Shown: positions 21,539 through 60,882 of the stretch, piece by piece | Layout: every line of letters begins with the position of its first letter | Numbering within the stretch: position 1 is the stretch's first letter | Origin: a virus | Length of the DNA: 64,000 nt | IMG/VR virus record: IMGVR_UViG_3300021077_000115 | Location: 174,064 to 238,063 of that record | Reading direction: 5' to 3' (one strand) | Made by a program: the position numbers and the translations under genes | Notes under the pieces: generated by a model | What the model was told of the DNA's origin: nothing | The model's input: the letters and a program-made list of their open reading frames with translations, nothing else | Database searches by the model: none

Positions 21539-21572
21539 CGCAATCTATCAATAACTTAGCAGATACATATTA

Positions 21573-21644: not shown

Positions 21645-21646
21645 CT

Positions 21647-21741: not shown

Positions 21742-21767
21742 TTTTCTTTGCCCCCATCTTCTAACGG

Positions 21768-22454: not shown

Positions 22455-22455
22455 C

Positions 22456-22541: not shown

Positions 22542-22742
22542 AATGGAAACGTTCAGACCAGGCGTATATAGTTGGTCAAAGAAGTGTGCAACCAAAACAA
22601 GTAACCGAAAACGCGCTGAATGGTACTTGTATAAGAAGGAACATAAGTCGCATTACCATCAACGTATTCGGCAAATAGGAGATTCAGATTACCACTACGA
22701 TTTTGATGGAGACTACGATCTCTTTGGTTGGTATGATATTCA

Positions 22743-36268: not shown

Positions 36269-36358
36269 GTGCCCGTCGCTCAGTGGTCGAGAGCAACAGA
36301 TTCTAAAACTGTCGCAGCCGAGAGGCTGCCATCGTGGGTTCGACCCCCACCGGGCACA
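36269..36358 (+). tRNA. amber suppressor tRNA (anticodon CTA), type II, A73
   Basis: GTGCCCG/CGGGCAC perfect acceptor, D GCTC AGTGGTCGA GAGC, anticodon stem ACAG/CTGT, loop TTCTAAA (U33, C34 U35 A36, A37), variable arm GCAGCC-GAGA-GGCTGC, T-arm GTGGG TTCGACC CCCAC; 18 nt downstream of PTH2. Confidence 0.7.
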
Positions 36359-36363
36359 CTATT

Positions 36364-36495
36364 ATGGAACAAGAACCAGAAGAGCCGGTCCACGAACCTC
36401 CACCAAAAGAGCACCCAGATATCGAGCTTGATGGTGGTGGCAAACTTACTTGGTGCGAAATATGTGAATCATATTGGCAATGCGGGTGTGGGTAA
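36364..36495 (+). CDS. small Cys-containing protein (43 aa), hypothetical
   Basis: MEQEPEEPVHEPPPKEHPDIELDGGGKLTWCEICESYWQCGCG*; TAATG overlap with nadK start. Confidence 0.25.
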   Translation: MEQEPEEPVHEPPPKEHPDIELDGGGKLTWCEICESYWQCGCG

Positions 36496-37448
36496 TGCCA
36501 AAAAAGATAATTGTAGTTACCAAGAAAACATCTTATTCAAAATACATCCAAGACCAAGATGATGTCGGTTCAAAGGAGTTATTGCTAAGTGCAAATCCAG
36601 CTGTTGCGTTTTGGAAATCATCTCACAACAGTCATATGAAGACTCTTGATATTGTTGTGTCGGAGATTCAAAAACAGAATTTTGTCTGCCACGTAATTGA
36701 TTCTAAATCATTTGTTGCCGAGCCAGATGATGTTGAAATGGTTGTTACTGTTGGAGGAGATGGGACATTACTATCAGCTTCTCACAACGTAAATAGTGCA
36801 CTGCCAATTCTTGCAGTCAACTCCGATCCATCAACTAGTGTTGGGTTCTTCTGCTATACAACATCAAATACTTTTCAAAATCATTTATCATTAGCATTAG
36901 ATGGTAAATGTCCCAATACAATTCTAACAAGAATGAGTGTTAGAAAGAATAATAAGATAGTTGCGAATAGAATATTGAATGACGTATTGTTCTGTCATAC
37001 AAATCCAGCGGCAACATCTAACTACATCATTCAATTAATGAGTCGCCGCTCCCTAACTCCAGCGGCTGGAATGTCTGTTGGATCGCGCGTTTCTCCGATG
37101 TCGCTGCAGGAAACTCAAAGATCAAGCGGAATATGGGTTGGACCTGCAGCGGGTAGTACGGCGGCTAGGCGTTCTGCCGGGCTTTCGCCGATGGATCTTG
37201 AATCTAAAGACTTGCAATTGGGGGTCAGGGAGTTGTACTATAAGCCATCCTCGAAGCCAGGCACACGATTTATGATGGCTGCCCCAGGGCAATTCATCAA
37301 AGTAATTAGCAAGATGGATAGTTCTGCTATGTATCTTGATGGAGATTACAGTGTAATTCCTGTTGGTCTTGGAGATGAAATAAACTTCGAGAAATCCGAT
37401 GACTCTCTGCAACTCTTAGGAAAACCAAATGTATTTTGTGGTAAATAG
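36495..37448 (+). CDS. nadK: NAD kinase
   Basis: GGDGT motif (VVTVGGDGTLLSASH) and downstream NxG/DG region typical of NadK/PpnK; ORF-track start 36474 (TTG) probably too early. Confidence 0.7.
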   Translation: MPKKIIVVTKKTSYSKYIQDQDDVGSKELLLSANPAVAFWKSSHNSHMKTLDIVVSEIQKQNFVCHVIDSKSFVAEPDDVEMVVTVGGDGTLLSASHNVNSALPILAVNSDPSTSVGFFCYTTSNTFQNHLSLALDGKCPNTILTRMSVRKNNKIVANRILNDVLFCHTNPAATSNYIIQLMSRRSLTPAAGMSVGSRVSPMSLQETQRSSGIWVGPAAGSTAARRSAGLSPMDLESKDLQLGVRELYYKPSSKPGTRFMMAAPGQFIKVISKMDSSAMYLDGDYSVIPVGLGDEINFEKSDDSLQLLGKPNVFCGK

Positions 37449-37632: not shown

Positions 37633-38109
37633 ATGATTCTTGGAATAACTGGGCACAGACCCAGTGTCTTAGGCTGTGGTTACGATATACCAAATCCAAC
37701 TTATGACCGTATCTGTCAACAGATAAAAGGTGAATTCATCGAGCTAAAACCAGAGAAGATAATTTCTGGTATGGCCCTTGGGGTAGATCAGTGGGCCGTG
37801 AGTATTGCAATGGAACTTGGAATACCTTTCATTGCAGCTGTGCCTTTCAAGGGACAAGACTCACGGTGGCCAGTTAAGAGTAAAAAGATCTACGAGGATA
37901 TGTTGGGCTCGGCAGATCGAATAGTCATCATTGGAGAACTTACCTCAAATAACTTTGCCGAACTAATGTTCTTGCGCAATAGATGGATTGTTGACAACTC
38001 ATCAGAACTGTTAGCGGTATGGAATGGAGATCGTAAGGGCGGTACATTCTCTGCTATCAATTATGCTGAGAAGAAATCAAATTACCATATTCGCGTCATA
38101 AAACCATGA
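37633..38109 (+). CDS. SLOG-family protein (YpsA/YoqJ-like, DUF1273)
   Basis: GITGHRP...GMALGVDQWA...IPFIAAVPF...LAVWNG..GGT pattern. Confidence 0.45.
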   Translation: MILGITGHRPSVLGCGYDIPNPTYDRICQQIKGEFIELKPEKIISGMALGVDQWAVSIAMELGIPFIAAVPFKGQDSRWPVKSKKIYEDMLGSADRIVIIGELTSNNFAELMFLRNRWIVDNSSELLAVWNGDRKGGTFSAINYAEKKSNYHIRVIKP

Positions 38110-40107: not shown

Positions 40108-41832
40108 ATGAAAATAGCATCAAGATGGGCGATTGCCGGCCTTGGGCTGGTAGCAGTCTGGTTCTCCATACCGCTTGGGCTGACAGCCTACGTGAACAGC
40201 AAGTATGGCCCTGAGATACGGGCCGGTCATATCAGCATAGTGCCACTGCCGGCTAAACTGCCGTGGGGTTTAGATTGTGCTCGGCTGCGTAATGTTCAAA
40301 TTGCCAACAAACAATGGTATGTTGATGGATATACAGCTACAATATCTGGAACAGTAAATTCGGCAGTTGCTTGTTATAGAACAAAAACAATACACGCTGA
40401 TGGCGGCAAGCTTAATGTTGTTTTAGATAAATCTTCTGGTAATAAATCTGCTAGTGGTACGGGGCCACATGGATTTTACATTACAGCAAAGAACATTGAA
40501 TTACACTTAGCAAGTGGTAATATATCAGTAGACGCATTTAATGCATCACTAAGCTCACAAACAATATGTGCTGACAAGGTTATTGCGTCACATCCAAAAG
40601 CAGACGCGGTAATATTCAATACTTGCATTTATACAAAAGAAAAATACGCCAAAGCGTATAAGGGATCTATCGCTCCTAAGTTAGAAGTAAAGGGACATAA
40701 GATTGAGGAGATATCTTTCACAGGACTGTCAAGAATCTCAAGGAGCGAATTTAGTGTTGGAACGATCAAATACGAAGAAAACATAGCTACAGGTGTTCAT
40801 GCTGAAATTAAGGATGGCCTTGTTTCAATAGACATCGGATACTTCTCAGCTTCTCATAGAAGATTATTCACTTCACCATTAGGTGTACGAAAAATAAACA
40901 TCTCAAACATCTCAAAAGACGATCCTCTCTCAAGCAATATTACTATAGGTATTGATGATAAGGTAACTGTTTTGGTAGATGTCGAGAATCGTCGTGTCTC
41001 TGGAAAAGACACCTGTAATAATTGGCTTGGAGTAGTCCCAGAAGAATTAAAGTCAGGACCAATAGGCCAGATGAGCGTAAAGGGAAACTTTGGTTTCGAC
41101 ATAAAATTAGAAAAGCCAATATCCCTGAAGATAAATAGCACATGCAGTATCGATGGACCAACTCCACAATTCATTACAGAACTTGGGAAGCCATTCAAAT
41201 ATACTGCATACCATCCGGATGGCACTCCATTTGAGCGCACGGCTGGGCCTGGAACTAATGACTGGATTCCTCTGGATTTTGTTGACAACATGGCCACTGC
41301 CCTGACAATCACAGAAGATCCTGGATTTTGGCACCATCGTGGTATAATCCCTCAAGCTCTGGAAAATTCACTCAAGGACGATATGCGCCTCGGAAAGTTC
41401 TTTCGAGGCGGCAGCACCATCACGATGCAGCTTGCCAAGAACCTCTGGTTGAACCGTACCAGAACGCTAGGACGCAAATTACAAGAAGGCATTCTCACGA
41501 TTGCATTAGAGAGCTGTCTTAGCAAAGAAAAGATACTTGAGTTATATTTGAATGTGGTTGAATTTGGTCCAAACATTTATGGCATAGGACCTGGATGTGC
41601 CAAGTTCCTAAAGAAGTATCCTGGAGAGATTAATATCTCTGAGGCCCTGTATATGGCAACTAGATTGCCATCTCCAAACAAAGCTCATTCATATGAAGCT
41701 AATAAAGGATTCATTAATAAGCTAATAGCCATTGGCGTTGCCTCTGGAAAGATCTCTGAAGAAGAGTTGGCTAACGAGCTTCAGGCTGAACAGGCCAAAG
41801 AAGCTGAGTCAGAAAATGAAGAGGACGACTGA
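40108..41832 (+). CDS. membrane protein with C-terminal peptidoglycan glycosyltransferase (GT51, PBP1-type transglycosylase) domain
   Basis: N-terminal TM; EDPGFWHHRG, RGGSTITMQLAKN, RKLQEGILTIALE...KEKILELYLN = GT51 motifs; Glu/Asp-rich tail. Confidence 0.65.
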   Translation: MKIASRWAIAGLGLVAVWFSIPLGLTAYVNSKYGPEIRAGHISIVPLPAKLPWGLDCARLRNVQIANKQWYVDGYTATISGTVNSAVACYRTKTIHADGGKLNVVLDKSSGNKSASGTGPHGFYITAKNIELHLASGNISVDAFNASLSSQTICADKVIASHPKADAVIFNTCIYTKEKYAKAYKGSIAPKLEVKGHKIEEISFTGLSRISRSEFSVGTIKYEENIATGVHAEIKDGLVSIDIGYFSASHRRLFTSPLGVRKINISNISKDDPLSSNITIGIDDKVTVLVDVENRRVSGKDTCNNWLGVVPEELKSGPIGQMSVKGNFGFDIKLEKPISLKINSTCSIDGPTPQFITELGKPFKYTAYHPDGTPFERTAGPGTNDWIPLDFVDNMATALTITEDPGFWHHRGIIPQALENSLKDDMRLGKFFRGGSTITMQLAKNLWLNRTRTLGRKLQEGILTIALESCLSKEKILELYLNVVEFGPNIYGIGPGCAKFLKKYPGEINISEALYMATRLPSPNKAHSYEANKGFINKLIAIGVASGKISEEELANELQAEQAKEAESENEEDD

Positions 41833-42080: not shown

Positions 42081-42572
42081 ATGTCTTCTGTATTGTTTGA
42101 GTTCAATATACAAGGAACACTTGAGCATGCATTTGCAATAGCAGCATTCTATCACTCTGGTATAAAAGACAAAGGCGGACAACCATACTTCAAACATCCC
42201 CTTTGGATTGCCTCTGAGCTTCTTTACAGAGGATCAACTGATACAGAGATTTCTGTCGGAATACTGCATGATGTAGTTGAAGACACATCAGTAACGTTTG
42301 ATATGTTACGAGAGTGGAGGTTCTCTGAAGAAATTATTGACGCCGTAAATGCTTTGACTAAGCGCGACGGAGAAGAAAGATGGGACTACATTGCAAGGGT
42401 AGCTCAAAATAGAATAGCTAAGAAGATTAAGCTTCTTGATCTACGTCACAATATGGACATAACAAGATTGAAGAATAGAGGAAATCTTCAAGATAAAGAT
42501 CTTCAAAGAATAAAGAGCTATGCCAGAGAATATGAGTTTCTTTCTGGTGGTTGTATAGGACCTATTTTCTAA
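42081..42572 (+). CDS. HD-domain protein resembling small (p)ppGpp hydrolases (SpoT/Mesh1-type)
   Basis: H..HPLWIA ... ILHDVVEDT motif pair. Confidence 0.5.
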   Translation: MSSVLFEFNIQGTLEHAFAIAAFYHSGIKDKGGQPYFKHPLWIASELLYRGSTDTEISVGILHDVVEDTSVTFDMLREWRFSEEIIDAVNALTKRDGEERWDYIARVAQNRIAKKIKLLDLRHNMDITRLKNRGNLQDKDLQRIKSYAREYEFLSGGCIGPIF

Positions 42573-43350: not shown

Positions 43351-43421
43351 GGGACCGTGGTGAAGAGGGATCACGCAACACTGGCAGTGTTGACTCGCGA
43401 GTTCGATTCTCGCCGGCTCCA
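43351..43421 (+). tRNA. tRNA-Ala (GGC)
   Basis: GGGACCG/CGGCTCC acceptor with G3.U70, D GTGA/TCAC, anticodon stem CAACA/TGTTG, loop CTGGCAG, T-arm GCGAG TTCGATT CTCGC. Confidence 0.65.
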
Positions 43422-43621
43422 CAAGGTGCAATATGCATCCTCTTGGAAGTAGAAAAGATCATAGTTTTGATTCTGATGGTCAAATCAAGGCAACTCGTGG
43501 CCGTGCCGCCAATGAAGAGGAAGCCTTGATTCGTGAGCAATTCAATGAATGCCTCGCTTGTGGAAGGCACGAACAACTAGCATGCGCTGATTGCCCAGCT
43601 CGGCAGATCAAGTAATATTTT

Positions 43622-43693
43622 GCCCCCATAGCTCAATGGAAGAGTGTCTGCCTTCTAAGCAGGTTGTTGAAAGTTCGAATCTTTCTGGGGGTA
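43622..43693 (+). tRNA. tRNA-Arg (TCT), second copy
   Basis: GCCCCCA/TGGGGGT acceptor, D GCTC/GAGT, anticodon loop CTTCTAA, T-arm GAAAG TTCGAAT CTTTC. Confidence 0.65.
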
Positions 43694-43705
43694 CTAAGAG
43701 GACTA

Positions 43706-44227
43706 ATGATTAGTTACGAAAAAGCAGTCGATATTCAAACTAAAGCCGAGAAGGCGTATGCAAAAGCATCAGCGCAATTGCAAGAAGCCAATAGTACATT
43801 GGAAGCTTTGAAGCGTGAACTTGAAATTGAATGCAGTACTTGTCACAAGACAACAAAGGTTAAGGATATCGAACTAATCGCTAGAAAGTCAGGAGGATAT
43901 CAAAGTTACGATCATGGAGAGTGGCAATATAACACTAGGGTATGTTGGGTTTGCAAACATTGCACAACTCCGCAATCACTACCCAGTGAAACAGAAGGCC
44001 CGTTCGCAAAGAAGCCACCATTTAAATATGGCTTTGATCATTATGTCAAAGCTGTTCATGAGTGGTATTCTGATAACGAACGTTGTCACGGGAGAGTTCT
44101 GCAATTATTAGGGCCACATCTACAAAGAGAAGAGGATCTTCTGCGCAAGAAAGAAAAGGAAAGAAAAATTGAAGAAGCTAAAAAATTACTTGCAGACGAG
44201 GGTATATTAGGTAATACTGAAGCATAA
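43706..44227 (+). CDS. hypothetical protein with zinc-ribbon and coiled-coil segments
   Basis: ORF-track start 43664 overlaps the tRNA; ATG 43706 is in the same frame. Confidence 0.4.
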   Translation: MISYEKAVDIQTKAEKAYAKASAQLQEANSTLEALKRELEIECSTCHKTTKVKDIELIARKSGGYQSYDHGEWQYNTRVCWVCKHCTTPQSLPSETEGPFAKKPPFKYGFDHYVKAVHEWYSDNERCHGRVLQLLGPHLQREEDLLRKKEKERKIEEAKKLLADEGILGNTEA

Positions 44228-44235
44228 TTTAGAAC

Positions 44236-44313
44236 GCCGATGTAGTTCAATTGGTAGAACGCCAGTTTCATAAGCTGGGTCTTGTGTGGGTTCGACTCCC
44301 TCTATCGGCACCA
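44236..44313 (+). tRNA. tRNA-Met (CAT), elongator type, CCA encoded
   Basis: GCCGATG/TATCGGC acceptor, D GTTC/GAAC, anticodon stem CCAGT/GCTGG, loop TTCATAA. Confidence 0.65.
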
Positions 44314-44805
44314 AATGTTTGACGATCTACTATATAGCCTGACCACCACACGCGAGCCGCTAGCGGCGGCGTGTAGGAATAGTTATGGCAAATCACAAGC
44401 GGCGAAAGCCTAAGAATAGTAGATCTGGATGTTTGATGTGTAAGTATTGGAAGATTAATGGCTTCTCCCCAAAAGAGAAGATGAAGTTTTCCGAATACCG
44501 AAGATACTCTGATGCTGCGGAACAGATGAAGGACGTCTGATTCTAGCAGAAGGATAGGTAATATGTTTGATACTAGTTAGGTAACCTTCTCTTCAAAAAG
44601 GAGGTGCCTATGCAATATTGCAAATGGTGTGCTCTCGTTCGCGAGCTGAGTAAAGACGAAACTGGCCACAGTAAGGTGGGCATGTGCCGTCAATGCTACA
44701 GAAAAGAGCACAAGACGGATACGATAGTCGATAGAAAAAGACTAAGAAAATCCAGAAAGTAAGTAAACTGGAACCGAGACGTTTGTCAACTCAAGCGTCT
44801 CGTCA

Positions 44806-44878
44806 CGGGGCTGTAGCTCAACTGGGAGAGCGCTAGACCTGCAATCTAGAGGTTGTCGGTTCGATTCCGATCAGCTCC
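44806..44878 (+). tRNA. tRNA-Ala (TGC) with C33
   Basis: GGGGCTG/CAGCTCC acceptor with G3.U70, D GCTC AACTGGGA GAGC, anticodon stem CTAGA/TCTAG, loop CCTGCAA; preceded by hairpin CGAGACG/CGTCTCG. Confidence 0.65.
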
Positions 44879-44884
44879 ACTTAC

Positions 44885-44956
44885 GGGGTCGTGTATAGGG
44901 ATACAGATTTCCTTTGCAAGGAAATTTTGCGAGTTCAATTCTCGACGGCTCCACCA
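44885..44956 (+). tRNA. tRNA-Ala (TGC), second copy, short D-loop, CCA encoded
   Basis: GGGGTCG/CGGCTCC acceptor with G3.U70, 6-bp anticodon stem ATTTCC/GGAAAT, loop TTTGCAA. Confidence 0.55.
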
Positions 44957-44958
44957 AC

Positions 44959-45030
44959 GCTAGCTTTGCGCAATGGTAACGCACTTGTCTTGTAAACAAG
45001 TCCATATCAGTTCGAATCTGATAGCTAGCT
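44959..45030 (+). tRNA. tRNA-Thr (TGT)
   Basis: GCTAGCT/AGCTAGC acceptor, anticodon stem CTTGT/ACAAG, loop CTTGTAA, T-arm ATCAG TTCGAAT CTGAT. Confidence 0.7.
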
Positions 45031-45036
45031 CTACTT

Positions 45037-45108
45037 GCTGACTTGGTGCTAACGGAAGCATGTCTGTTTCGTAATCAGAAGGTATCAGTTCAATTCTGAT
45101 AGTCAGCT
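45037..45108 (+). tRNA. tRNA-Thr (CGT)
   Basis: GCTGACT/AGTCAGC acceptor, anticodon loop TTCGTAA, T-arm ATCAG TTCAATT CTGAT. Confidence 0.65.
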
Positions 45109-45435
45109 CAACGGATAATTTTGTATTTATATAGGAGTAATAGTTAAGTAATCAAGTCGCTCCAAAGAGGTGATAAATGGTTACGGTAAAAGAAGCAATC
45201 ATAAGAGTGGTAGCTGAAAAGCTTCGAGAATATTACCTTCGTGGTATTAGAGATGCCCGCATTGAAGTATCTGAAAACTCAATGCCAAGTATTCTTGAAA
45301 CATTTGATGCTGGAGATTTTGATAATGCATATGATCAACATGTCTGGCTAAAAATAGCAGAGAACATCATAGATATGTAACATGCCCATGTAGTATAATG
45401 ACATTACATTTCCTTGGTAAGGAAAAAAATCTGGT

Positions 45436-46143
45436 TTGATTCCAGCCTTGGGCTCTAATAGTAGTTCGATTCAGAATTCAGCTGATATATGCCAACGCAT
45501 GAGAGCTGGATTAACATACGAAGAAGCCGGTAAACTTGGGGCAATTGCTTACGCCAAAACAGCAGCTACTCTAAAGCAACAAAGAGTAGATAATTGGAAC
45601 AATAATCCTAAGCTTTGTAAGGCATGTAGTAGCGCAATTCCATACGAGAAGCGTCAGAATAATTTCTGCAGCCACAAATGTTCGGCAGCATTTAATAACA
45701 AGGGAATTAGAAGAAATGGTAACGCACCAATAAGCTGCCTCAACTGCGCAACTGAAACTCACAACCCAAAGTTTTGCTCTTCTAATTGTGCGCTTGAATG
45801 GAATTGGAAAGAGGCAAAGCAGCATTTGATAGACACTGGAGTCGATGAATCTTGTGCTAATAAAATTGGTAAAAGATATCTGATAGAATTGCACGGTAGA
45901 TGCCAGCAGTGCTTGTCATCTGAGTGGCAAGGAAAAGCAATCCCGTTAGTTCTAGATCATATCAACGGAAACCCATATGATAACTCATTACCAAATCTCA
46001 GGGTAATATGTCCTAATTGCGACGCTCAAACCCCAACCTTTGCAGGAAGGAATAGAGGCAATGGTAGGTTTGAGAGAGCGAAGCGTTATAAGTTTGAGAA
46101 AGATACATTTTGTGATCTAAACAGATCACAATGGAAACATTAA
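45436..46143 (+). CDS. HNH homing endonuclease
   Basis: LDHINGNPYDNSLPNLRVICPNCDAQTPTF plus upstream CxxC pairs. Confidence 0.65.
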   Translation: MIPALGSNSSSIQNSADICQRMRAGLTYEEAGKLGAIAYAKTAATLKQQRVDNWNNNPKLCKACSSAIPYEKRQNNFCSHKCSAAFNNKGIRRNGNAPISCLNCATETHNPKFCSSNCALEWNWKEAKQHLIDTGVDESCANKIGKRYLIELHGRCQQCLSSEWQGKAIPLVLDHINGNPYDNSLPNLRVICPNCDAQTPTFAGRNRGNGRFERAKRYKFEKDTFCDLNRSQWKH

Positions 46144-46808
46144 TTTGCATAAACCCGCATAGAAGTATGGTTTCCAAAATTTCTATCGTCGGGGTTGATG
46201 ATAGTGTATGTCCCGCAGATCTAGTTGATATTTCACAGACCTTTCAGTTTGTTGAGTGGGGCGTTAATCTATGCCCTGAACAAGAACAGAGGCCTGGACA
46301 CCCCTCATCCGAATGGCTTGAAGAACTACTACCTTGCGCTGAAGATCTCCGATTGCGCGGAATCCTGCACGGCCGCTGGGAAAATGATGTGCTTGAAGGT
46401 GCTCCATCGCTAAAGGAGGAACGTCCAGATATCTGGGCAGCTTTTAGATGGTTGCAAGTTGACATCAGGAAAGATCCAAAGAAGATATTAACATCACTGC
46501 AACATTACCCAGATAAGATTATTCTATATACAAATCTAGAGCCAACATTTTCATCTAGGATTCTATTACCAAGAAATAAGATATTTACATGTCTTGATTA
46601 TTGTGGATACGATTTACTTGAGTCTGACCTTGATTGGTTGTGCCAAGAAACGAAGAAGTCATTTTGGGTAAGCATCGAGGGATTTAGATCTGATGACGAG
46701 ATTACCATGGACCTCTCTAGGGTAGTGAAGTTTTTGAATAGGGCAGAAGATTTTGTCACCCATGATAGTTTGGTGAAATCTCTGCGTCATAAGGGTTATC
46801 GAATATGA
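46131..46808 (+). CDS. hypothetical protein
   Basis: 225-aa ORF overlapping neighbours at both ends. Confidence 0.4.
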   Translation: METLICINPHRSMVSKISIVGVDDSVCPADLVDISQTFQFVEWGVNLCPEQEQRPGHPSSEWLEELLPCAEDLRLRGILHGRWENDVLEGAPSLKEERPDIWAAFRWLQVDIRKDPKKILTSLQHYPDKIILYTNLEPTFSSRILLPRNKIFTCLDYCGYDLLESDLDWLCQETKKSFWVSIEGFRSDDEITMDLSRVVKFLNRAEDFVTHDSLVKSLRHKGYRI

Positions 46809-47680
46809 TCCTGAACCACATCAAGCAAATCGCACATTCCAACTACTCCGAAGAGATTCGGCATGTAACGAAGGAAGAGGTAGCCGCCCTAAGTTCACTT
46901 GACCTATCAATGCTTCACTCAATCATGATTGGGCCGCATGTAAGTTTGGCGTTAGCGGTACTTCAGCGTATTGGTTTCTTTGAAGATCTCATCCCGGAGA
47001 TTCAGGAAGGGCTTGACCTCAAGAGTTCGAAGCACTTCAAAGAAATCTGGCCGCATACGATTCAGGTAGTTGGACAAACTCCGCCGGTTATCAACATTCG
47101 CTGGGCGGCACTGTTTCACGATCTGGGTAAGGCTAAGGCATTCGATATCAAGAACAACAAGGTTACATTCCATAACCACGAACATATCAGCGCATACATC
47201 TTCGATCAGTTTGCAAAGCGTACTGGGATTTTCAGTAACGGACAGCGAAGATCTATCCGATTCCTTGTAGCCAATTTGGGTTATGTTGAAGCGTATGATA
47301 GCTCTTGGACTGATACCGCCGTACGTAGGTTTGATAAGGAAGTTAGTATTTTTATTGATGACCTCTTGACTTTATCCGAGGCTGATATTACAACTAGCAA
47401 ACCGGAAAACAGAAGGAGGATCCTTCGCAGGATTCAAGAGCTGAGAGACCGTATTGCAGATATACGAGAAAAAGACTCCAAGCAACGCCCGCTTCCAAAG
47501 GGATTGGGAAATGCTATCTCTGACAACCTAGGAATTCCGTTAGGGCCTAGAATTGGGCAGCTGATGAAAGAATTAGAGGGAAAGGTTGAGATAGGAGAAA
47601 TATCGGCAAATGAAGATATCACATACTATATTGAACACCTAAGAAAGTCCCAAGTCGAGATTGCTAATACGCCAGCATAA
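46805..47680 (+). CDS. HD-domain protein resembling the C-terminal HD domain of bacterial CCA-adding enzymes (no nucleotidyltransferase head)
   Basis: AALFHDLGKAKAF motif and downstream helical region. Confidence 0.45.
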   Translation: MILNHIKQIAHSNYSEEIRHVTKEEVAALSSLDLSMLHSIMIGPHVSLALAVLQRIGFFEDLIPEIQEGLDLKSSKHFKEIWPHTIQVVGQTPPVINIRWAALFHDLGKAKAFDIKNNKVTFHNHEHISAYIFDQFAKRTGIFSNGQRRSIRFLVANLGYVEAYDSSWTDTAVRRFDKEVSIFIDDLLTLSEADITTSKPENRRRILRRIQELRDRIADIREKDSKQRPLPKGLGNAISDNLGIPLGPRIGQLMKELEGKVEIGEISANEDITYYIEHLRKSQVEIANTPA

Positions 47681-48219
47681 GGTGTATGTCAGAAACAATC
47701 ATTATCGACAATAGCTTCTTCACTTTGTCATATAACCCAGATACCAAGATCGTTCATCACGAAATAAAAGTTGCCCTCACTCACCAGGCGTTCATTAACT
47801 TGCTCACTGGTGGAGAGGCGGCTTTGAAAAGCAACCAGGCTATCAAGTGGTTGTCAGATGACCGTAAGTACAGCTCTCTAACTGCCGAAAATATGGATTG
47901 GTCTGGCCAGTGGTTACCTGGGGCCATGGCAGAGACCGGCTGGAAATATTGGGCGAGGGTTGTTGATAAGATGCCACCAAAGCCAATTCAGGATCAATTC
48001 GTTTCCGGTTATGGCAGTTACGGTCTTGTGGCAAAGATATTCACAGATATGTCTGCGGCAATGAAGTGGCTAGAAGATCAGGTGTAAGCTACTAATACTT
48101 TGGAATAATTATCTAACCTGTCTCTTGAACACAACGATGATAGTTGGTTGGAACAGGACAAACCACTAACCATGGTTTGTGGCCATACCATAGCAGAATA
48201 ATTCAGGGTGGTCATTTTT

Positions 48220-48291
48220 GCGGGCGTAGTTCAGCGGTAGAACGCGATCCTTCCAAGTTCGATGTCAGGAGTTCGATCCTCCTCGCCCGCT
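48220..48291 (+). tRNA. tRNA-Gly (TCC)
   Basis: GCGGGCG/CGCCCGC acceptor, anticodon loop CTTCCAA, T-arm AGGAG TTCGATC CTCCT. Confidence 0.7.
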
Positions 48292-48314
48292 CTACCAATA
48301 ATCTGGAGTTCTAA

Positions 48315-48410
48315 CATGGGTATTAAGAAACATAGAAGTATTAAGACGCATCGTGTTCCTGGTGGTGCTGGTAGTGGATCAAAAGTGATTCCAATCAAGA
48401 GAACTAGTTA
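48315..48410 (+). CDS. very small basic protein (31 aa) between Gly tRNAs, hypothetical
   Basis: MGIKKHRSIKTHRVPGGAGSGSKVIPIKRTS*; GGAG 8 nt upstream. Confidence 0.2.
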
Positions 48411-48416
48411 ATATTT

Positions 48417-48489
48417 GCGGGCGTAACTCAATTGGCAGAGTACCAGCTTCCCAAGCTGGAGGTTGAGGGTCCGATGCCCTTCGCCCGCT
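48417..48489 (+). tRNA. tRNA-Gly (CCC) with variant T-loop TCCGATG
   Basis: Same acceptor GCGGGCG/CGCCCGC, anticodon stem CCAGC/GCTGG, loop TTCCCAA. Confidence 0.6.
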
Positions 48490-48574
48490 CTCCCACCGGC
48501 GGTGGGAACAAATGGTTCTTAAGTGAACTGTTTCTGACTGTCACGATGTGAAAGCAGCGATTGATGGTCATTTC

Positions 48575-48655
48575 GCGGGCGTAGTCTAATGGTATGACAA
48601 CAGCCTTCCAAGCTGTCTCCGAAAGGAATTGAGAGTTCGAGTCTCTTCGCCCGCT
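48575..48655 (+). tRNA. tRNA-Gly (TCC)-like with 13-nt GNRA-hairpin insertion (CTCCGAAAGGAAT) in the variable region
   Basis: Same acceptor, anticodon stem ACAGC/GCTGT, loop CTTCCAA, T-arm GAGAG TTCGAGT CTCTT. Confidence 0.5.
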
Positions 48656-48665
48656 CTCAACCCAC

Positions 48666-48738
48666 GCGGGTAACTCCTCAATGGTGAGGTGCCTCGTTGC
48701 CAACGAGGAAGCGGCCAGTTCGATCCTGGTTACCCGCT
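48666..48738 (+). tRNA. tRNA-Gly (GCC)
   Basis: GCGGGTA/TACCCGC acceptor, anticodon stem CCTCG/CGAGG, loop TTGCCAA. Confidence 0.6.
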
Positions 48739-48771
48739 CAAACAACACAACGCATATCCTGGAATTATACC

Positions 48772-52300: not shown

Positions 52301-52384
52301 GAGAGTCAATCCGATTGGCGACGGAACCTGCTTGGAAAGTAGACGAGCGTAACAGCCTTGTGAGTTCGAATCTCACACTCTCCG
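52300..52384 (+). tRNA. tRNA-Ser (GGA), type II
   Basis: GGAGAGT/ACTCTCC acceptor, G73, long D-loop with GG, anticodon stem CTGC/GTAG, loop TTGGAAA, T-arm GTGAG TTCGAAT CTCAC. Confidence 0.6.
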
Positions 52385-52389
52385 CAAAG

Positions 52390-52836
52390 ATGAATGTTAA
52401 CCAAAAAGGCGTGGTTGGTTTGGTTAAGGTAATATCCGATTTAGTAAGTAGAGGATATGAAGTATTCACGCCAATTTCTGATTTTTGCCCAGTTGATATT
52501 ATTGTGGCAGATAGTAAAATGAACCTTAGGAGGATACAGGTAAAATACCGTGAACATGACAACAGGAATAAGAATGCAATAGTTGTACAACTTGACTCAA
52601 TAGTAAATGGGAAAAGAGTTCCAGTTGATGTTTCGCTAATTGATGGGTGGGCAATATATTTCCCTGAAACTAATGAAATTTACTACGTTCCCAAAAGTGA
52701 AGTGCAGGGCAGGAGTATTTGGCTATGCATTAGGGAGTATAAATTAAGAAGAAACAAATTAGCAAGTAAGTTTCTTGATCCTGATAGAATTTTTGGAGAG
52801 GCAATCCAACAGCTGGCGATGGAATCTGGTTGCTAA
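52390..52836 (+). CDS. hypothetical protein, possibly PD-(D/E)XK nuclease fold (Hjc/endonuclease-like); 3' end overlaps tRNA-Ser(GCT)
   Basis: RGYEVFTPISDFCPVDIIVADSK...IQVKY resembles a D...(D/E)xK core. Confidence 0.3.
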   Translation: MNVNQKGVVGLVKVISDLVSRGYEVFTPISDFCPVDIIVADSKMNLRRIQVKYREHDNRNKNAIVVQLDSIVNGKRVPVDVSLIDGWAIYFPETNEIYYVPKSEVQGRSIWLCIREYKLRRNKLASKFLDPDRIFGEAIQQLAMESGC

Positions 52837-54638: not shown

Positions 54639-55402
54639 GTTTTTCCTTTATCCTTTATCCTTTATCCTTTTTGGAGGATATGAAAAGGAAGTGCATCTAG
54701 GCGGGATCCTCGACGGGGAAAATAGCTACTTCTCATTCTTACAAGCAAACTCAACGATAGCCGATTCCAAATCACAATCCTCGATGTAGAACAGCGGAAC
54801 CTTAGGTGCTGTTTCCGAGGCACGGATAGCATTCACAATCAATTGACCAAGGCGCAAATCTGGACACTTGATCCACGATTGAAAGATAGCCTCGATCATC
54901 ATACTTTTCTGGGCCACAGTAATTGATCGCCCCTCTATCGGCTTAGTCATTGACTAATGCGCTCTTATTAGCTCAACGTAGTAGGTTTCATCTTGGTCTG
55001 CCACACGTTGAAATACCTTACGGCAATCATGACACTCTACCACTGACGTCACCCTAAGGCCAATTAGAGTACCATTGCACTTTGGGCAATTGGCTTCTGA
55101 AATCAATTCCTGTGTATTTCAAGCATTATCATATTGTACTCATCATTCCGTCAGGAAACGAAGTCTGCTCGACCCAATCTTGACCGAATACATCCAAGCA
55201 ATACCTCTGATACTGGACATCCATCTTTTCTCTCAATTGTAAGAGGGTACGGATTGAGAATGTAATCTTCTCTTGCATATCCGAGGAAATCAATAATAGT
55301 AAAAACTTCGTGTTGAATTACTTGAAATAGACCAGCTATAGAGTTCTTGAAAGTTGGTTTATATTCTAATTCATTGTTGAGAATTGTTACTGCACCCATA
55401 CT

Positions 55403-55903
55403 TCACCCCTGATCGTATACAGTAACATTGATACCTCTTTTCAATAACTCATTCTCAATAAGTGGCTCAATTTCTTCCCAGTTACCCTGAGCGAGCCCAC
55501 ACCCAATCCTGGGCATGTGTACTGCTGCGTTATACTTACTGATTTCGTCACCAGCCTTATCCAAACACTTTTGTAGGGCGCTGTAGTCAATTGGCTTAGG
55601 ATTTTTTGGACCCACGATACCTTTTTGGGCGACCATATTGATCACCACAAGGTCGCTGAGAATTTGTATAATCTGGATGTCTCCGAGAAGCAATTTTCCG
55701 TAACGTTCACGCCACCACTTGCGATATTCAATCTCGACTTTTGGCCATCGCCTTGCAAGCGCTCCAGAGAAGCCCGCTCCGTATTTACCCTCATCATTGA
55801 CAATCTGAATTACGTAACGGGTGTTACTTCCAAGAGGATTGGTAGCATCGCCATTCACGAACTTGAGCAGACCTTTTGGATTATGATCACTTGGTTTTAC
55901 CAT
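55403..55903 (-). CDS. Macro-domain protein (ADP-ribose binding/hydrolysing)
   Basis: KFVNGDATNPLGS...IVNDEGKYGAGFSGAL and PRIGCGLAQG resemble macro-domain motifs (VNAAN..GGGV..AI; P.IGTG..G). Confidence 0.55.
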   Translation of the reverse strand: MVKPSDHNPKGLLKFVNGDATNPLGSNTRYVIQIVNDEGKYGAGFSGALARRWPKVEIEYRKWWRERYGKLLLGDIQIIQILSDLVVINMVAQKGIVGPKNPKPIDYSALQKCLDKAGDEISKYNAAVHMPRIGCGLAQGNWEEIEPLIENELLKRGINVTVYDQG

Positions 55904-56000
55904 ATTTTTCCTACTTAAAAGAGGTAGTTTTTTGATTCTGAAACTACCAAAACAGCCGCACCACCGATCACCACTGCGCCGCCGACCAAGCGGAAAGACA

Positions 56001-56228
56001 TTATTTTTTTCTATAGATTATTCTACATTTGGTCATGTCGAATGTATCCAGCTCAACATCAACCTTATCGCCCTCAACAACTTTTATATTATTGGTGCGC
56101 ATCTTACCGGAAAGTTGTCCCATCACTTTTTTTGTATTACCGTTTTCAAGATCTATGCTAACGGCGAAGAATCCGTTACCGCAAGCTCTATCAATTATTC
56201 CGTTGAATCTTGGTTTTTCAGAAGGCAT
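56001..56228 (-). CDS. infA: translation initiation factor IF-1
   Basis: GKMRTNNIKVVEGDKVDVELDTFDMTKCRIIYR aligns with E. coli IF1 [33 protein letters not shown]. Confidence 0.75.
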   Translation of the reverse strand: MPSEKPRFNGIIDRACGNGFFAVSIDLENGNTKKVMGQLSGKMRTNNIKVVEGDKVDVELDTFDMTKCRIIYRKK

Positions 56229-56730
56229 CTAACTCTTTCCTTAAGATTTTTTTCTTCAATTGGAATTCCTGAAACCCAAGCTTCCTCGATTTCGAAATCT
56301 TTAGGATATGAAATATTGGTTGGCTTAATTAATCTTGTATTTGTTTCAAGATATCCATTTACTATATATCGAAGAGTATTGATTCCTAACAATAAAGGAC
56401 TGATATTATTCTTCCAAATACCACCCTCAAAATAACAACTGCGAAGTTTACCGTCATTACCAAGAAATGTAATGATGTCTTTTTCTTTTGCAGAATATAG
56501 AATAAACCAATAACTATTCTTTCCGATCAGGGCTGGCCTTGCCTTGCGGAAGATGTCCTTGGTCTTTGTGGCTGGGACAAGCGCCGGATAAACCTGTACT
56601 GCTCGGTTCTTAAAGATACGCAACCGATTACCTTCCGAATCGAGCCAAAAGTGCCAGTCACCCTTTGGCTCAAGCATTAGCATGTCAGCCAGGATATCAA
56701 ATGGGCAGTTGATTGCCGCCCGCGCCGAAG

Positions 56731-57462
56731 CTATTGCCCTATCCTTTTGCATAACTGTGGTTTATCAGAAACTATTGGATATGGCTTTGTAATCATCTTA
56801 TGGCGAGTTAGTTTTTCCCTCTGCCATACTAAGGCAATAATAGCCTTCTGATTTGAGATGAAATACGGCCACCTTGGATGTTTATTTGGAGCCTCGGTGC
56901 TCGTAACGATTCCGTACAACGCTTCTGCCTCATTAGCGAATTCAATATCAGCTATTGGAGGCTGCTTATTGTATGTACTGAATCTGCAATCGCCCCAAGA
57001 GAACTCACCTATGTTTGGCCAAAGGTTTCCGACTACATTATGTATATCAGAGTATTCAAGATCAAACAACGGAAAGATATCTGCATTGCCATCTGATCTC
57101 TTTCCATAACTTCGATGGTAAAGGCCAAACGTTCTATCTACTGAACCCACTACTAGACCATTGTCCCCGGCAATTTCGGCGCAAGTCAAATAGAAATTTT
57201 CATCTGATAAAAACGGACGATCATAGTATGTTATCTTTCCGTTGAATACGTTTTGTGTTCCAATCCTTTCTCCTCTACATAAAGCATGAGTAGATAACCA
57301 TCCCCCATACATCTCAGTAGCTTTTGAACAAATACTAAGTAGAAGGGCATCGGAGCGGCAACCTCGAAAACCTACAACAAATACACTTCGTCCAGCAGCC
57401 TTGGCGTACTCCGCTAGCCACGTTGCTAAATGTTTAATAAGTAGATCTTGATTGATAATCAT
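56731..57462 (-). CDS. NAD+ synthetase (NadE)-like protein with divergent PP-loop
   Basis: LVVGSVDRTFGLYHRSYGKRSDGNADIFPLFDLEYSDIHNVVGNL aligns with NadE [44 protein letters not shown]; the SGGxDS position reads RGCRSDA. Confidence 0.5.
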   Translation of the reverse strand: MIINQDLLIKHLATWLAEYAKAAGRSVFVVGFRGCRSDALLLSICSKATEMYGGWLSTHALCRGERIGTQNVFNGKITYYDRPFLSDENFYLTCAEIAGDNGLVVGSVDRTFGLYHRSYGKRSDGNADIFPLFDLEYSDIHNVVGNLWPNIGEFSWGDCRFSTYNKQPPIADIEFANEAEALYGIVTSTEAPNKHPRWPYFISNQKAIIALVWQREKLTRHKMITKPYPIVSDKPQLCKRIGQ

Positions 57463-57980
57463 TTCTTCTTTGAATCTTTTACTACCCTATCAACCAAACC
57501 CTGAATATCTAGGTTTGGCATTGTTGGGGTATCATCAACTGATTTAAATCTATCCAATGCGTAATCTGCAATTTTGCCAGCCCTATGAATAACATCATCA
57601 GCAGAGTAATTTGAACATTTCATCATAGCTGTAGTTATACGAGTATATACATGATACCAAACTTGATACTCTGAATATTTCATGATGGTATTACTTCCTT
57701 CTTCTTTCGTGATTTCTTAACTCTAACAGGTGATGTTGGGCTATGATAATTGGAAATTATCTGCTTGATCTCAAGTGTCTCTTCGGGAGTGCAAGCATTG
57801 CCAAGAGAATTCATAACTTCCAGACCATAATTGTTTGTCTGTTGGTTTTTGTGAATTATTACCCATGCTCTTGGAAGGCTATCCATAATTGCCTTCCTGT
57901 AGCTTATCATAAGATTGAGATCTGTACTTATCTCAAACAAGTCTTTTCGCTGTTCAATAGGCGTTGTCATATTATTCTTT

Positions 57981-58550
57981 CTATAGCAAACCAAGCAACA
58001 TCATTGCTAGCACACATCCATGTCCGAATTTGATATTCTCGTTCTCAATAAGTTTAAAAATATCATATCCAATCACATTGATATTGTGAGCATCAAAGTC
58101 TTGAAGTACCAATATATCAGATGAGTCAAATGCGTCCTGAAGCTTGGAAAATGCTATTGTATTTCTTACAGCTTCAGAATATATAGGAAGATATATCTTC
58201 TTCCTTGCCTCAATATATCCAAATTTTTGGCCATCCCACAAAGAATACAGTGGCCTAGCTCCTCGACCTTTGGGATAACGATCGGCCATGCGCTTATCCC
58301 AACCCTTCTGAGCCCAATCGAAATAGGATTGGTTGGGTTCGTTGTTCTCGTCCGTATACTCAACATACACCTTAGAATACTGCCAAGCATTCTCTACGTT
58401 CTGCGATGTATAATCTCCATATAGCTTGACTGGTCCAAGGAAGAATGGAGATAGTCCTCTGCCCCAATCTCCAGAGCGTGATGTTGTATTGACAACAGTT
58501 GCCCCCTCTGGGGCCGCATATGAATGCATGGCTACAATTAGTTGTTTCAT
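57981..58550 (-). CDS. NADAR (YbiA-like, DUF1768) domain protein
   Basis: LSPFFLGPVKLYGDYTSQNVENAWQYSKV matches the NADAR core (FS..YP.P....G..Y.S.EH..QA.K). Confidence 0.45.
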   Translation of the reverse strand: MKQLIVAMHSYAAPEGATVVNTTSRSGDWGRGLSPFFLGPVKLYGDYTSQNVENAWQYSKVYVEYTDENNEPNQSYFDWAQKGWDKRMADRYPKGRGARPLYSLWDGQKFGYIEARKKIYLPIYSEAVRNTIAFSKLQDAFDSSDILVLQDFDAHNINVIGYDIFKLIENENIKFGHGCVLAMMLLGLL

Positions 58551-59139
58551 TTGTATACTAAAGAAATTCCACTAGCCGGGTCTTCTGCCAAGATAGTAAG
58601 TCGTTGCTTGAAATCGAATTCTAAGTCTTTTTGCAGACTAACATACTCTTGTTTTCTTTCTGTTGACTTACTAATAAGTCTAGAAAGAGATCCTTTAGGA
58701 TCAAGATACGCCCCATACAGATATTGCATCCTGATTTTAGAAGTGGCCTCTCGAACTTCTTTAGCAGCAAGTTCTTTGAACTTTTCTACATTACTTTCTA
58801 TTCTGGTGCTCTTGAGAATTCCACAGTCAATATCAAAGAACATATCCTCTTCATACATTGAGCCATACCCGGCGTGAACATAATGAAGTTCATGACCTTT
58901 CCAAACATGAAGTTCTTGAGAAACCCAATCGGCAAAAAATGGGCCTTTCCCCTTCATAACTCCGCCAACCACTCGATTGAGATATAGCTTATTATCTACA
59001 ATCTCCCACTCCCCAACGTACCCTCGATAGTTGGCTGTGTGAAATGGATGACTTGGATTAGCCTTACCATTTAGGCTTGGATTAGAGATCATATCCAGCT
59101 TCTCATCTTCATAGATAAGAATTTCAGGTTCTTGCGCAG

Positions 59140-59436
59140 TCATACTGTATCATCTTCTTCTGGTCCAATGAAAATTCTAGCCCTATCTATTGCGCCAGAT
59201 AGATCTTCCAATTCTCTCAAGATCCAATCGCGATTAGTTTCGCGTTGTTCAGGTGGAATATCGGGGTTGGTACTTTCCAATCCCCAGCGTTGAGTTTTAC
59301 CAACTGCTGCAAGAACTTCACCACACTCTTCTACGAGATATCCAAGTGCCTGTTTGGTTGTTTTTGGTTCGTATTGTGGTTTCATGTTACCATCATTCTT
59401 TAATACTAAGAGATTTGTATAGAGAATCTTTGTCAA
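59140..59436 (-). CDS. MazG-like nucleotide pyrophosphohydrolase (low confidence)
   Basis: LVEECGEVLAAV...RELEDL resembles the EExGE MazG motif. Confidence 0.35.
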   Translation of the reverse strand: MTKILYTNLLVLKNDGNMKPQYEPKTTKQALGYLVEECGEVLAAVGKTQRWGLESTNPDIPPEQRETNRDWILRELEDLSGAIDRARIFIGPEEDDTV

Positions 59437-59720: not shown

Positions 59721-60554
59721 TCAATGGTCATAATAACCATCACTTTCGAGAGCTATCTTCAAATTGCTATATAATACATCAGGATCGTTATCAGAAAGTC
59801 CCGACATTTGACCATCATTCAATTCGATAAGAATCCATTCACCAGCGGCTGTCTTTGCCACATCAATCACATAGTAATCTGGCGGCTCGCTCAGCTCTGT
59901 GTTTTGAACTTTATCGATAATAGCATTTAGGAAAGAGCGTGGTACCTCGTCCGGATTTACGTTGACACCTTCGGCTTTGATATCTTCAGAATGAGATGCC
60001 CAGTAGAAGCCGCCGCTGAGTATCTTATGTTTATAAATAAAGAAGCGATACTCTCTGGTAATTGGGAGTCCTTGAAGTCCTTCTGAAAGTGTCTCTAATG
60101 GCACATATTGTCGAATATATATCTTTTGGTATTGCAGCATCGAATCAGCTGTGAGGCGTCCATGAACTTCGATAGCCTCCCTCTTGTCCTTCGCGAACAT
60201 ATGGGTATTCCATAAGAATTTCTTCGAGTTTGTCTCGCCCTTCAGAACGAATGTCCCTTGCTCTGGAATGGTATGAAGCTCATTCCAAGTTCGCGGCGTG
60301 AATTCTGCAAGGTCCATATACCAATTACCCAAGTCAGCAATGTATAGATGCTGCTCGTAGGTATTGATCATCTTACATCCCACATACCCAAGATCTTTTT
60401 CTTGTTCCTTGTAGAATGGCAGAGCGGAGAATCTAGCAATCACCAAATTGTCTTTAAGTAGCATTCGGCTATCTATACAAGTGAAGTGCTTCTTTGCTAC
60501 TTCTGCTTCTTGACGCCAATCTACATCATTGCGAAAGAGAATAACAGGCTTCAT
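59721..60554 (-). CDS. ATP-grasp domain protein
   Basis: C-terminal EWILIELNDGQMSG (ATP-grasp E-x-N motif) and upstream K-rich ATP-binding region. Confidence 0.45.
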   Translation of the reverse strand: MKPVILFRNDVDWRQEAEVAKKHFTCIDSRMLLKDNLVIARFSALPFYKEQEKDLGYVGCKMINTYEQHLYIADLGNWYMDLAEFTPRTWNELHTIPEQGTFVLKGETNSKKFLWNTHMFAKDKREAIEVHGRLTADSMLQYQKIYIRQYVPLETLSEGLQGLPITREYRFFIYKHKILSGGFYWASHSEDIKAEGVNVNPDEVPRSFLNAIIDKVQNTELSEPPDYYVIDVAKTAAGEWILIELNDGQMSGLSDNDPDVLYSNLKIALESDGYYDH

Positions 60555-60808
60555 TTATTGCACCAAAAGCTATAAGATCCTCAGCAGCCATTATATCCTC
60601 AATGGCTCGTCTTTGAACTAATTGAAAAACATCATCCTCTGCATGGTTCATCATTTCTATAAATAGAAGATGCCTTCCCAATATTGCTCTTCTAACATCG
60701 GCTTTAGAGACTTTTCGGACAAGTTCTCCAAACTCATTCTCGCGCCAACCACGAGGCAACATGGACTTGATGATCTTGCGCTTTTCACGATGTTTCTTTC
60801 CCATTTTG

Positions 60809-60882
60809 TCGGAGTGGTCAGATTTGAACTGACAACCTTTCGGACCCAAACCGAACGCGCTACCAAGTTACGCTACACTCCG
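60809..60882 (-). tRNA. tRNA-Pro (TGG), minus strand
   Basis: RC reads CGGAGTG TA GCGT AACTTGGTA GCGC G TTCGG TTTGGGT CCGAA AGGTT GTCAG TTCAAAT CTGAC CACTCCG A; perfect stems. Confidence 0.7.

Follow-up and report, generated by a model that had tools for sequence, protein, structure and literature searches.

A huge-phage operon encoding two predicted ADP-ribosyl hydrolases, initiation factor IF-1, and a NadE-like protein that has lost its ATP-pyrophosphatase loop

Phage-encoded erasers of ADP-ribose that defeat DarTG systems have been demonstrated only recently, AdfN in 2025 and AdfM in 2026. Orphan phage NADAR proteins (AdfN) from several lineages neutralize DarTG1, and NADARs remove guanine-linked ADP-ribose from DNA; the catalytic residues of AdfN from phage T4 (gp30.3) are E36 and K43 (PMC11825919). 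AdfM, a phage macrodomain, counters DarTG2 (PMC13309987). Among cellular macrodomains, SCO6735 strips thymidine-linked ADP-ribose off DNA and Glu/Asp-linked ADP-ribose off protein and neutralizes DarT (PMC9411070). Macro and NADAR domains were predicted in jumbo phages in 2021 (PMC7824862), a prediction that has since been partly validated, and jumbo phages with pncB-nadD-nadE clusters for nicotinamide adenine dinucleotide (NAD) have also been reported (PMC11662467). Here we compare with these systems a group of genes at positions 55403 to 58550 in a 64,000-nucleotide stretch of viral DNA (IMG/VR record IMGVR_UViG_3300021077_000115, positions 174,064 to 238,063; below, the window), which encode a macrodomain protein, initiation factor IF-1, a protein resembling NAD synthetase (NadE-like), and a NADAR-fold protein of the Pfam family DUF6939.

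The explanation that we favor, and that we consider somewhat probable when taken as a whole, is that this region encodes two erasers of base-linked ADP-ribose together with a NadE relic that is not a synthetase and sits in an ancient cassette. The two erasers would be ADP-ribosyl glycohydrolases shielding the nucleic acid of the phage against host toxins that ADP-ribosylate bases. The macrodomain, which is of the SCO6735 type, would remove thymine-linked ADP-ribose (DarT2 type) and possibly also Glu/Asp-linked ADP-ribose from protein, and guanine-linked ADP-ribose (DarT1 type) on DNA or RNA would be the substrate of the DUF6939/NADAR protein. AdfN defeats DarTG1 and AdfM defeats DarTG2, and one eraser per chemistry is the most economical reading. 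The NadE relic would descend from an NH3-dependent NAD synthetase and, having lost the ATP-pyrophosphatase loop, would be unable to adenylate nicotinate adenine dinucleotide (NaAD). It would have retained a few NadE residues and gained conserved residues of its own, and rather than making NAD it would bind or process a ligand of the NAD or ADP-ribose type. With unk185, the phage IF-1, and the macrodomain, it would form the ancient cassette.

The window originates from a huge, tRNA-rich phage, as indicated by the long contigs on which identical proteins are recorded (metagenome contigs of 215,808 and 391,957 bp), by the location of relatives on large IMG/VR viral contigs (131 to 336 kb), and by its 50 tRNA genes. 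No close relative was detected when the region was compared by megablast with 50,697 GenBank phages. The layout of its open reading frames (ORFs) indicates that the region forms the distal portion of a single long operon on the minus strand, extending from ~60.55 to 55.15 kb, in which the ORFs abut or overlap by 4 to 34 nucleotides in the order R2K ATP-grasp, unk116, MazG-like, unk198, DUF6939, unk104, unk74, NadE-like, unk185, IF-1, Macro, and unk82. The run is tightly packed except for a 97-nucleotide gap that separates the IF-1 and macrodomain genes.

The macrodomain protein (166 amino acids; 55403 to 55903, minus strand) scored 24.3 bits against Pfam Macro (cut-off, 22) and matched phrog_335 (1.3e-26). 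It aligned end to end with SCO6735 (PDB 5e3b; 1.1e-36, ~45% identity) and over its full length with BT1257 (PDB 2fg1; 9.4e-35), and it belongs to the SCO6735/BT1257 subclass of ALC1-like macrodomains. In the 5e3b alignment, SCO6735 residues N27, Q85, G128, and V25 correspond to N36, Q93, G136, and I34. Mutagenesis of SCO6735 identified N27 and Q85 as essential and G128 as important, and a role in placing the catalytic water was proposed for V25 (PMC9411070). With the essential catalytic residues intact, the protein is predicted to be a credible ADP-ribosyl hydrolase. It shares with SCO6735 the Gln that replaces the catalytic Lys of DarG/TARG1, as well as the Asn, Gly, and Val/Ile positions. 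It does not belong to DarG, the DarTG2 antitoxin: it consists of the macro domain only, has Gln at the position of the catalytic Lys80, lacks the C-terminal DarT-binding domain, and scored 23.4 bits against NCBIfam antitoxin_DarG (cut-off, 250), and its match to the PADLOC DarG model (1.1e-8, 33 bits) covered the macro part alone. Like AdfM (PhiKZ gp104, anti-DarTG2), it comprises a single domain and comes from a large phage, but it falls outside the DarG2-like subclass of AdfM and, unlike either SCO6735 or AdfM, it is found in a cassette with IF-1 and the NadE relic. One homologue (39% identity), in the related locus L013 (11525 to 12004 of that locus), reads NKAGTAR in place of the conserved PRIGCGLAxG loop and may be catalytically inactive, though it still occupies the cassette position.

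The second candidate eraser is a protein of 189 amino acids (57981 to 58550, minus strand) with a significant match to Pfam PF22075, DUF6939 (4.9e-10). Searches of its sequence and profile against PDB sequences returned only noise; in the fold test, it has the NADAR fold seen in 8bat, 8bau, and 2b3w. An LSPF motif is followed 19 residues on by E53-N-A-W-Q57-Y-S-K60, and all of these residues are invariant in 35 homologues. T4 gp30.3 and YbiA carry E-x3-Q-x2-K 18 residues past their LSNF/FSNF motif, and E53 and K60 match the AdfN-T4 catalytic pair E36/K43 at the same spacing. The protein is predicted on these grounds to be a guanine-ADP-ribose glycohydrolase and an orphan AdfN-like factor; it is an orphan, as AdfN is, because no DarT1 (DUF4433) toxin gene is adjacent, and the neighboring unk198 and unk104 had no DarT or ADP-ribosyltransferase (ART) match in Pfam or PADLOC. 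Activity of NADARs is not confined to DNA, as they de-modify ADP-ribosylated guanosine in RNA as well (PMC11833690). Compared with AdfN-T4, the DUF6939 protein is ~35 residues longer and has additional conserved motifs (RYPxG, DFDAH, and GH); unlike AdfN and the DarG1 NADAR antitoxin (PDB 8bat), it is placed by Pfam in DUF6939 and not in the NADAR or NADAR-DarT1 models.

DUF6939 is a new addition to the known NADAR superfamily. A full-text search found no literature on this Pfam family, which has >1,200 members and now gains a testable function. Homologues with 37 to 48% identity are present in 66 records of GenBank phages, among them cultured phages of Erwinia (jumbo phages), Klebsiella (Stephanstirmvirinae), and Ralstonia (phiRSL1) as well as the 460- to 735-kb megaphages LR7565xx; the annotated records list them as hypothetical proteins, and those of LR7565xx are unannotated. 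The NADAR assignment would extend to these homologues. At the present locus, a macrodomain and a NADAR protein are found together in one operon.

The NadE-like protein (243 amino acids; 56731 to 57462, minus strand) has RGCRSDA (residues 33 to 39) at the position of the PP-loop; the canonical form of this loop, SGGXDST, characterizes ATP pyrophosphatases of the N type (PMC3376133). It had no Pfam match, remaining below the threshold of PF02540, and its PHROG match ("NAD synthetase") was weak and covered 45 residues. Two of its 23 closest homologues reached 0.016 at best against PF02540, and a distant relative in L013 passed (29.5; threshold, 21). A profile built from these 23 homologues retrieved from the PDB almost exclusively NH3-dependent NAD synthetases, the best being 3fiu (4.9e-4), which is the nicotinamide mononucleotide (NMN) synthetase of Francisella. 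When the family was aligned with Escherichia coli NadE by hhalign, only the K..D.xPL block was matched, with a probability of 10%, and a fold search was therefore needed. The AlphaFold model (pLDDT, 80.6) was compared with the PDB by Foldseek, and the top 43 matches were all NAD synthetases (TM scores, 0.44 to 0.58). With NadE and 3fiu the protein has in common the fold, the length, the motif K-x6-D-I-x-P-L, a C-terminal T-x-H-K, and a Tyr in helix 1; it differs in the loop, which is RGCRSD here and SGGxDS in NadE, and it is not predicted to adenylate a substrate.

The loss of the loop extends through the family. Searching 1.84 billion representative sequences with the family profile (HMMER, E <= 1e-3) yielded 227 family representatives, 146 of which were aligned with E. 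coli NadE. SGG was kept in 12 of the 146, with SGGxDS in 2 and SGGxNS in 9, the remainder being essentially random, and the first five loop columns ranked only 121st to 147th of 243 for conservation. By contrast, K173 and D180 of E. coli NadE were kept in 99% and 100% of the representatives and H260 and K261 in 95% and 97%, and T258, P183, and Y33 were also largely kept. Near-invariant residues specific to the family are R117, E174, W198, Q205, and K217 (numbered as in the window protein), and E216 is present in 84%. The window protein itself lacks the Ser, the second Gly, and the Asp of SGGxDS and has Phe/Gly, Tyr, and Phe (Phe175) as equivalents of E165, K189, and T211; in the family at large, neither E165 nor K189 has a retained equivalent, and most members carry Trp in place of T211.

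In Bacillus subtilis NadE, D50, E162, K186, and T208 presumably hold Mg-ATP and pyrophosphate, and we take K170, D177, H257, K258, and Y32 to surround the NaAD site, which lies at the dimer interface. If these roles are right, the family has dispensed with the half of the active site that handles ATP, and the half for the dinucleotide persists. The member P0292 retains SGGIDS together with E165, K189, and D176 and lies in the same gene context; we interpret the existence of a few near-canonical members beside many that lack the loop as a gradual loss of the ATP site. With the ATP loop lost family-wide, synthetase activity is unlikely for the NadE-like protein. The family appears to represent a core metabolic enzyme turning into something else, the ligand of which could reveal a new counter-defense or regulatory principle. 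No homologue was found in GenBank phages (tblastn, 50,697 genomes), and neither a NadE family lacking the PP-loop nor its cassette with unk185 and IF-1 was found in the literature searched, in GenBank phages, or in Pfam.

IF-1 (75 amino acids; 56001 to 56228, minus strand) passed the cut-off of the infA equivalog TIGR00008 (64.8 bits; cut-off, 61.15) and matched Pfam eIF-1a (1.1e-16). Its start lies 34 nucleotides inside the upstream gene, unk185 (56195 to 56752, minus strand), which it follows directly in nearly every related locus. IF-1 belongs to the cassette proper and is translationally coupled within it. Unk185 always lies between the NadE-like gene and IF-1. It gave no match in Pfam, PHROG, PADLOC, NCBIfam, or PDB-profile searches, and none of its 38 clusters among 5.8 billion proteins is annotated; its homologue in L013 was recognized by hhalign (1.3e-26). 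On the other side of the NadE-like gene, the small ORF unk74 (57459 to 57683, minus strand) overlaps the NadE-like start by 4 nucleotides and is found immediately 5' of this gene in most loci, including the distant L004, L007, L008, L019, L020, and L027. The cassette ends with unk82 (55151 to 55399, minus strand), a small conserved ORF without a Pfam match that follows the macrodomain gene in 12 analyzed loci.

Gene order was read with local HMMs on all fetched loci, the sources of which include 3 distinct IMG/VR contigs and 8 loci from a metagenome scan. The order unk74, NadE-like, unk185, IF-1, Macro, and unk82 recurs in ~17 distinct huge-phage loci. The clustering of the NadE-like, IF-1, and macrodomain genes exceeds chance, because the same order is kept in these loci down to ~25% identity of the NadE-like protein; the distance to the flanking syntenic genes varies by kilobases. 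This fixed linkage of IF-1 provides a handle on why huge phages encode an initiation factor of their own. Genes are inserted within the cassette in some relatives, encoding a DEAD-box helicase (L009, L010, and L013), a thioredoxin (L009), and an ankyrin-repeat protein (L005). In L013/L014, the NadE-like gene is immediately preceded by genes for a nicotinate phosphoribosyltransferase (NAPRTase) and, sharing nucleotides with its start, an ADP-ribosylglycohydrolase of the ARH family (6.4e-40). The ADP-ribose-removing folds of Macro, NADAR, and ARH are unrelated to one another, and the recruitment of all three beside the NadE-like gene in different lineages argues that the relic still handles a molecule of the NAD or ADP-ribose type. 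The trio unk198-NADAR-unk104 occurs only in a close subclade (the window, L001, L017, L021, and L025), and unk198 is present only where NADAR is present; these three genes are an insertion specific to that lineage and adjoin the cassette. Within a few kilobases of the cassette in more distant relatives, we also noted genes for a short RF-1-like protein (L007, 5622 to 6146), an RtcB RNA ligase (L008, 12180 to 13583), and a Ro60-type vWA protein (L004, 1062 to 2666), which lend a flavor of translation and RNA repair to its surroundings.

The original prediction, made by a model from the sequence alone, had described here a cluster of NAD/ADP-ribose-related genes next to IF-1. All of the genes that it named in this cluster are found at the coordinates that it gave, on the minus strand. 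Its macro domain was borne out by the Pfam and 5e3b matches, and its NadE-like protein with an atypical PP-loop was borne out by the Foldseek result, with the difference that the loop is lost across the whole family rather than in a single protein. The YbiA-like NADAR that it proposed holds for the fold and the catalytic motif but not for sequence, which does not align significantly with YbiA and is placed by Pfam in DUF6939. IF-1 was correctly called, but it is a conserved member of the cassette rather than a mere neighbor. As for the cluster itself, the NadE-like, IF-1, and Macro order endures among relatives, whereas NADAR is lineage specific and the NAD kinase gene is not linked.

Several observations weigh against the explanation that we favor. 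In the macrodomain protein, SCO6735 residues H24, K34, and K89 are not kept and correspond to Q33, A43, and V97; the study of SCO6735 concluded that DNA is positioned by lysines that include K34 and K89, and H24 was likewise mutagenized (PMC9411070). Homologues of the macrodomain in Streptomyces phages adjoin Sir2 or ART genes, which suggests a writer-eraser role rather than counter-defense; such a role is conceivable for the macrodomain studied here, and no writer enzyme was found in this locus. The DUF6939 protein did not reach the curated NADAR model (PF22397 NADAR-DarT1, E value of 0.05, 13.5 bits; cut-off, 27), and its hhalign comparison with YbiA and T4 AdfN (gp30.3) gave a nonsignificant probability of ~1%. 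With no detectable sequence kinship to these proteins, its substrate specificity may differ from theirs. For the NadE relic, the degenerate loop residues G34, R36, and D38 are themselves conserved in the close clade, so that the site may still bind something. The pocket roles assigned to K173, D180, H260, and K261 by comparison with B. subtilis NadE are tentative, and a literature check on NadE residue roles found nothing beyond the SGGXDST motif. Finally, all of the loci belong to one huge-phage clade, and the conserved order could be inheritance and not functional coupling.

The last point leads to the view that the region holds no functional module, only independent accessory genes that are co-located through inherited order within one lineage of huge phages. 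Unrelated flanking genes (RNase T, a PMM-like hydrolase, and R2K) are also syntenic across the loci, NADAR, unk198, and MazG come and go, and helicase, thioredoxin, and ankyrin genes insert. We regard this view as quite unlikely, since the core order survives to ~25% NadE-like identity while flank spacing varies by kilobases, ORFs overlap by 4 to 34 nucleotides, and ARH and NAPRTase genes were independently recruited right beside the NadE-like gene. The original prediction of a counter-defense or NAD-reconstitution module has fared unevenly. The counter-defense half gains from credible ADP-ribosyl hydrolases whose closest characterized relatives (SCO6735, DarG1/AdfN, and AdfM) reverse DarT-type DNA ADP-ribosylation. 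In the reconstitution half, the NadE-like protein would amidate NaAD or nicotinate mononucleotide and, with NadK and salvage genes, rebuild the NAD(P) pool drained by host NADases. The NadE fold, the best sequence match to the NMN synthetase 3fiu, the NAPRTase gene two genes upstream in a relative, the few members that keep SGGxDS (P0292 having E165, K189, and D176 as well), and the NadK gene in the window all fit this proposal, as do the pncB-nadD-nadE clusters of jumbo phages (PMC11662467). It is nevertheless improbable, as no constraint on the loop is seen within the family and the window protein has neither the three missing loop residues nor the equivalents of Glu165 and Lys189. The pathway enzymes NMNAT, NAMPT, Adps, Namat, and NadD were not found among the ~50 ORFs, small ones aside, that were compared with Pfam in this window, which is part of a genome of at least 392 kb, and the NAD kinase gene lies 19 kb away on the other strand. 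The NAD clusters of jumbo phages (NAPRTase/NMNAT, pncB-nadD-nadE, and NadV-NatV of KVP40) resemble this locus in being clustered NAD-related genes of a large phage, and the L013 relative has NAPRTase beside its NadE-like gene. In the window, however, no adenylyltransferase or phosphoribosyltransferase was found, the partners of the NadE-like gene are ADP-ribose hydrolases and IF-1, and the catalytic loop is gone.

The presence of IF-1 raises the question of RNA. In a translation or RNA-protection cassette, the products would act on the translation apparatus, freeing RNA or translation factors of ADP-ribose or using it to regulate them, and would supply IF-1, with DNA and DarT not the main target. 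A bona fide infA equivalog is embedded with overlapping reading frames, DEAD-box helicases are inserted in three of the relatives, an R2K ATP-grasp is at the operon head, the window holds 50 tRNAs, and the RF-1-like, RtcB, and Ro60-vWA genes are near the cassette in relatives; the RNA activity of NADARs noted above points the same way. The Results of that study report SCO6735 as inactive on 5'-phosphate-linked RNA/DNA and on 2'-OH RNA ADP-ribosylation, and its Discussion is inconsistent with this, calling SCO6735 active on RNA phosphate ends (PMC11833690). With no ADP-ribosyltransferase identified in the operon and a purely positional link between IF-1 and ADP-ribose, we consider this reading, though a serious alternative, unlikely. 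A phage toxin-antitoxin or superinfection-exclusion system, with unk198 as an unrecognized ADP-ribosyltransferase toxin and NADAR as the matching type IV antitoxin, on the model of DarT1-NADAR or YarT-YbiA, appears highly improbable. The two genes overlap by 4 nucleotides and are always gained or lost together, and ART-NADAR pairs with non-DarT toxins exist (PMC11125620), but unk198 gave no DarT or ART match in Pfam, PADLOC, or PDB profile searches and its alignment contains no obvious ART-like motif. A more speculative extension of the explanation that we favor, with its two erasers and NadE relic, is that a virus-specific NadE-derived family gave up ATP chemistry and became a binder or sponge of NAD-derived molecules (for instance ADP-ribose or cyclic ADP-ribose immune signals), or a new enzyme using the family's own Arg/Glu/Trp/Gln/Lys set, and that with unk185, IF-1, and the macrodomain it makes up a hitherto unrecognized cassette that links ADP-ribose metabolism to translation initiation when huge phages infect. 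We put this forward tentatively and hold it to be on balance doubtful.

At the head of the operon is a gene for an R2K-clade ATP-grasp protein (59721 to 60554, minus strand; PF14243, 6.1e-18) that relatives retain; the product called in L001 is a 439-amino-acid protein that additionally has SNF2/ResIII helicase matches. A tRNA-Pro gene lies just upstream of the ORF run. A promoter and terminator scan gave fewer promoter matches than shuffled sequence and was uninformative, and no NAD riboswitch was found in the Rfam scan, in which tRNAs were the sole matches. The MazG-like NTP pyrophosphohydrolase of the original prediction (59140 to 59436, minus strand) is a fragment-sized ORF that is supported by phrog_4856 (1.6e-11) but remains below the cut-off of Pfam MazG (0.0063). 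Among the loci compared with local HMMs it occurs in the window only, and the gene is an accessory outside the conserved cassette. The stop of unk198 (58547 to 59143, minus strand) overlaps the NADAR start by 4 nucleotides, and this ORF had no match among GenBank phages (tblastn, 50,697 genomes). For unk104 (57680 to 57994, minus strand), the probable true start is an ATG at 57970; its homologues in L001 and L017 have 93 amino acids.

The NAD kinase homologue (36474 to 37448, plus strand) was called in the original prediction from an ATG at 36495, which is also plausible as a start. It was recovered by Pfam PF01513 (32.9 bits; cut-off, 25.5; 9.1e-8) and contains the VGGDGT motif within VTVGGDGTLL, but it missed all NCBIfam equivalog cut-offs, the best score being 41.9 against 493. 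Directly downstream is a gene for a YpsA-type SLOG/DprA-like protein (37633 to 38109, plus strand; Pfam YpsA, 8.4e-16; DNA_processg_A, 2.8e-11; PADLOC ShosA, 1.1e-7), and the two may constitute a second nucleotide- or NAD-linked pair.

The 50 tRNA genes were counted by ARAGORN (48 by Rfam) and cover nearly all amino acids. They are located at 11762 to 23506 and 43351 to 48739 and, in addition, at 1234 to 1305, 36269 to 36359, and 60808 to 60882. The tRNA at 36269 to 36359, just upstream of NadK, has a CTA anticodon (amber-suppressor type, labeled tRNA-Pyl). A test for TAG recoding by gain in ORF length was crude and uninformative, and the standard code was kept because homologues end where the window ORFs end. 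Other ORFs of the window encode an OmpA/NMT1-like protein (4031 to 5599), an AAA/STAND-like ATPase (7216 to 8898), a transglycosylase-domain protein of 574 amino acids (40108 to 41832), a protein with an HD_4 (RelA/SpoT-type HD) domain (42081 to 42572), and a PD-(D/E)XK nuclease (52315 to 52836). A 712-amino-acid ORF (31104 to 33242, plus strand) matched the Major Vault Protein shoulder (8.7e-28) and the Vault_3 repeat (1.6e-9), which is unusual in a phage.

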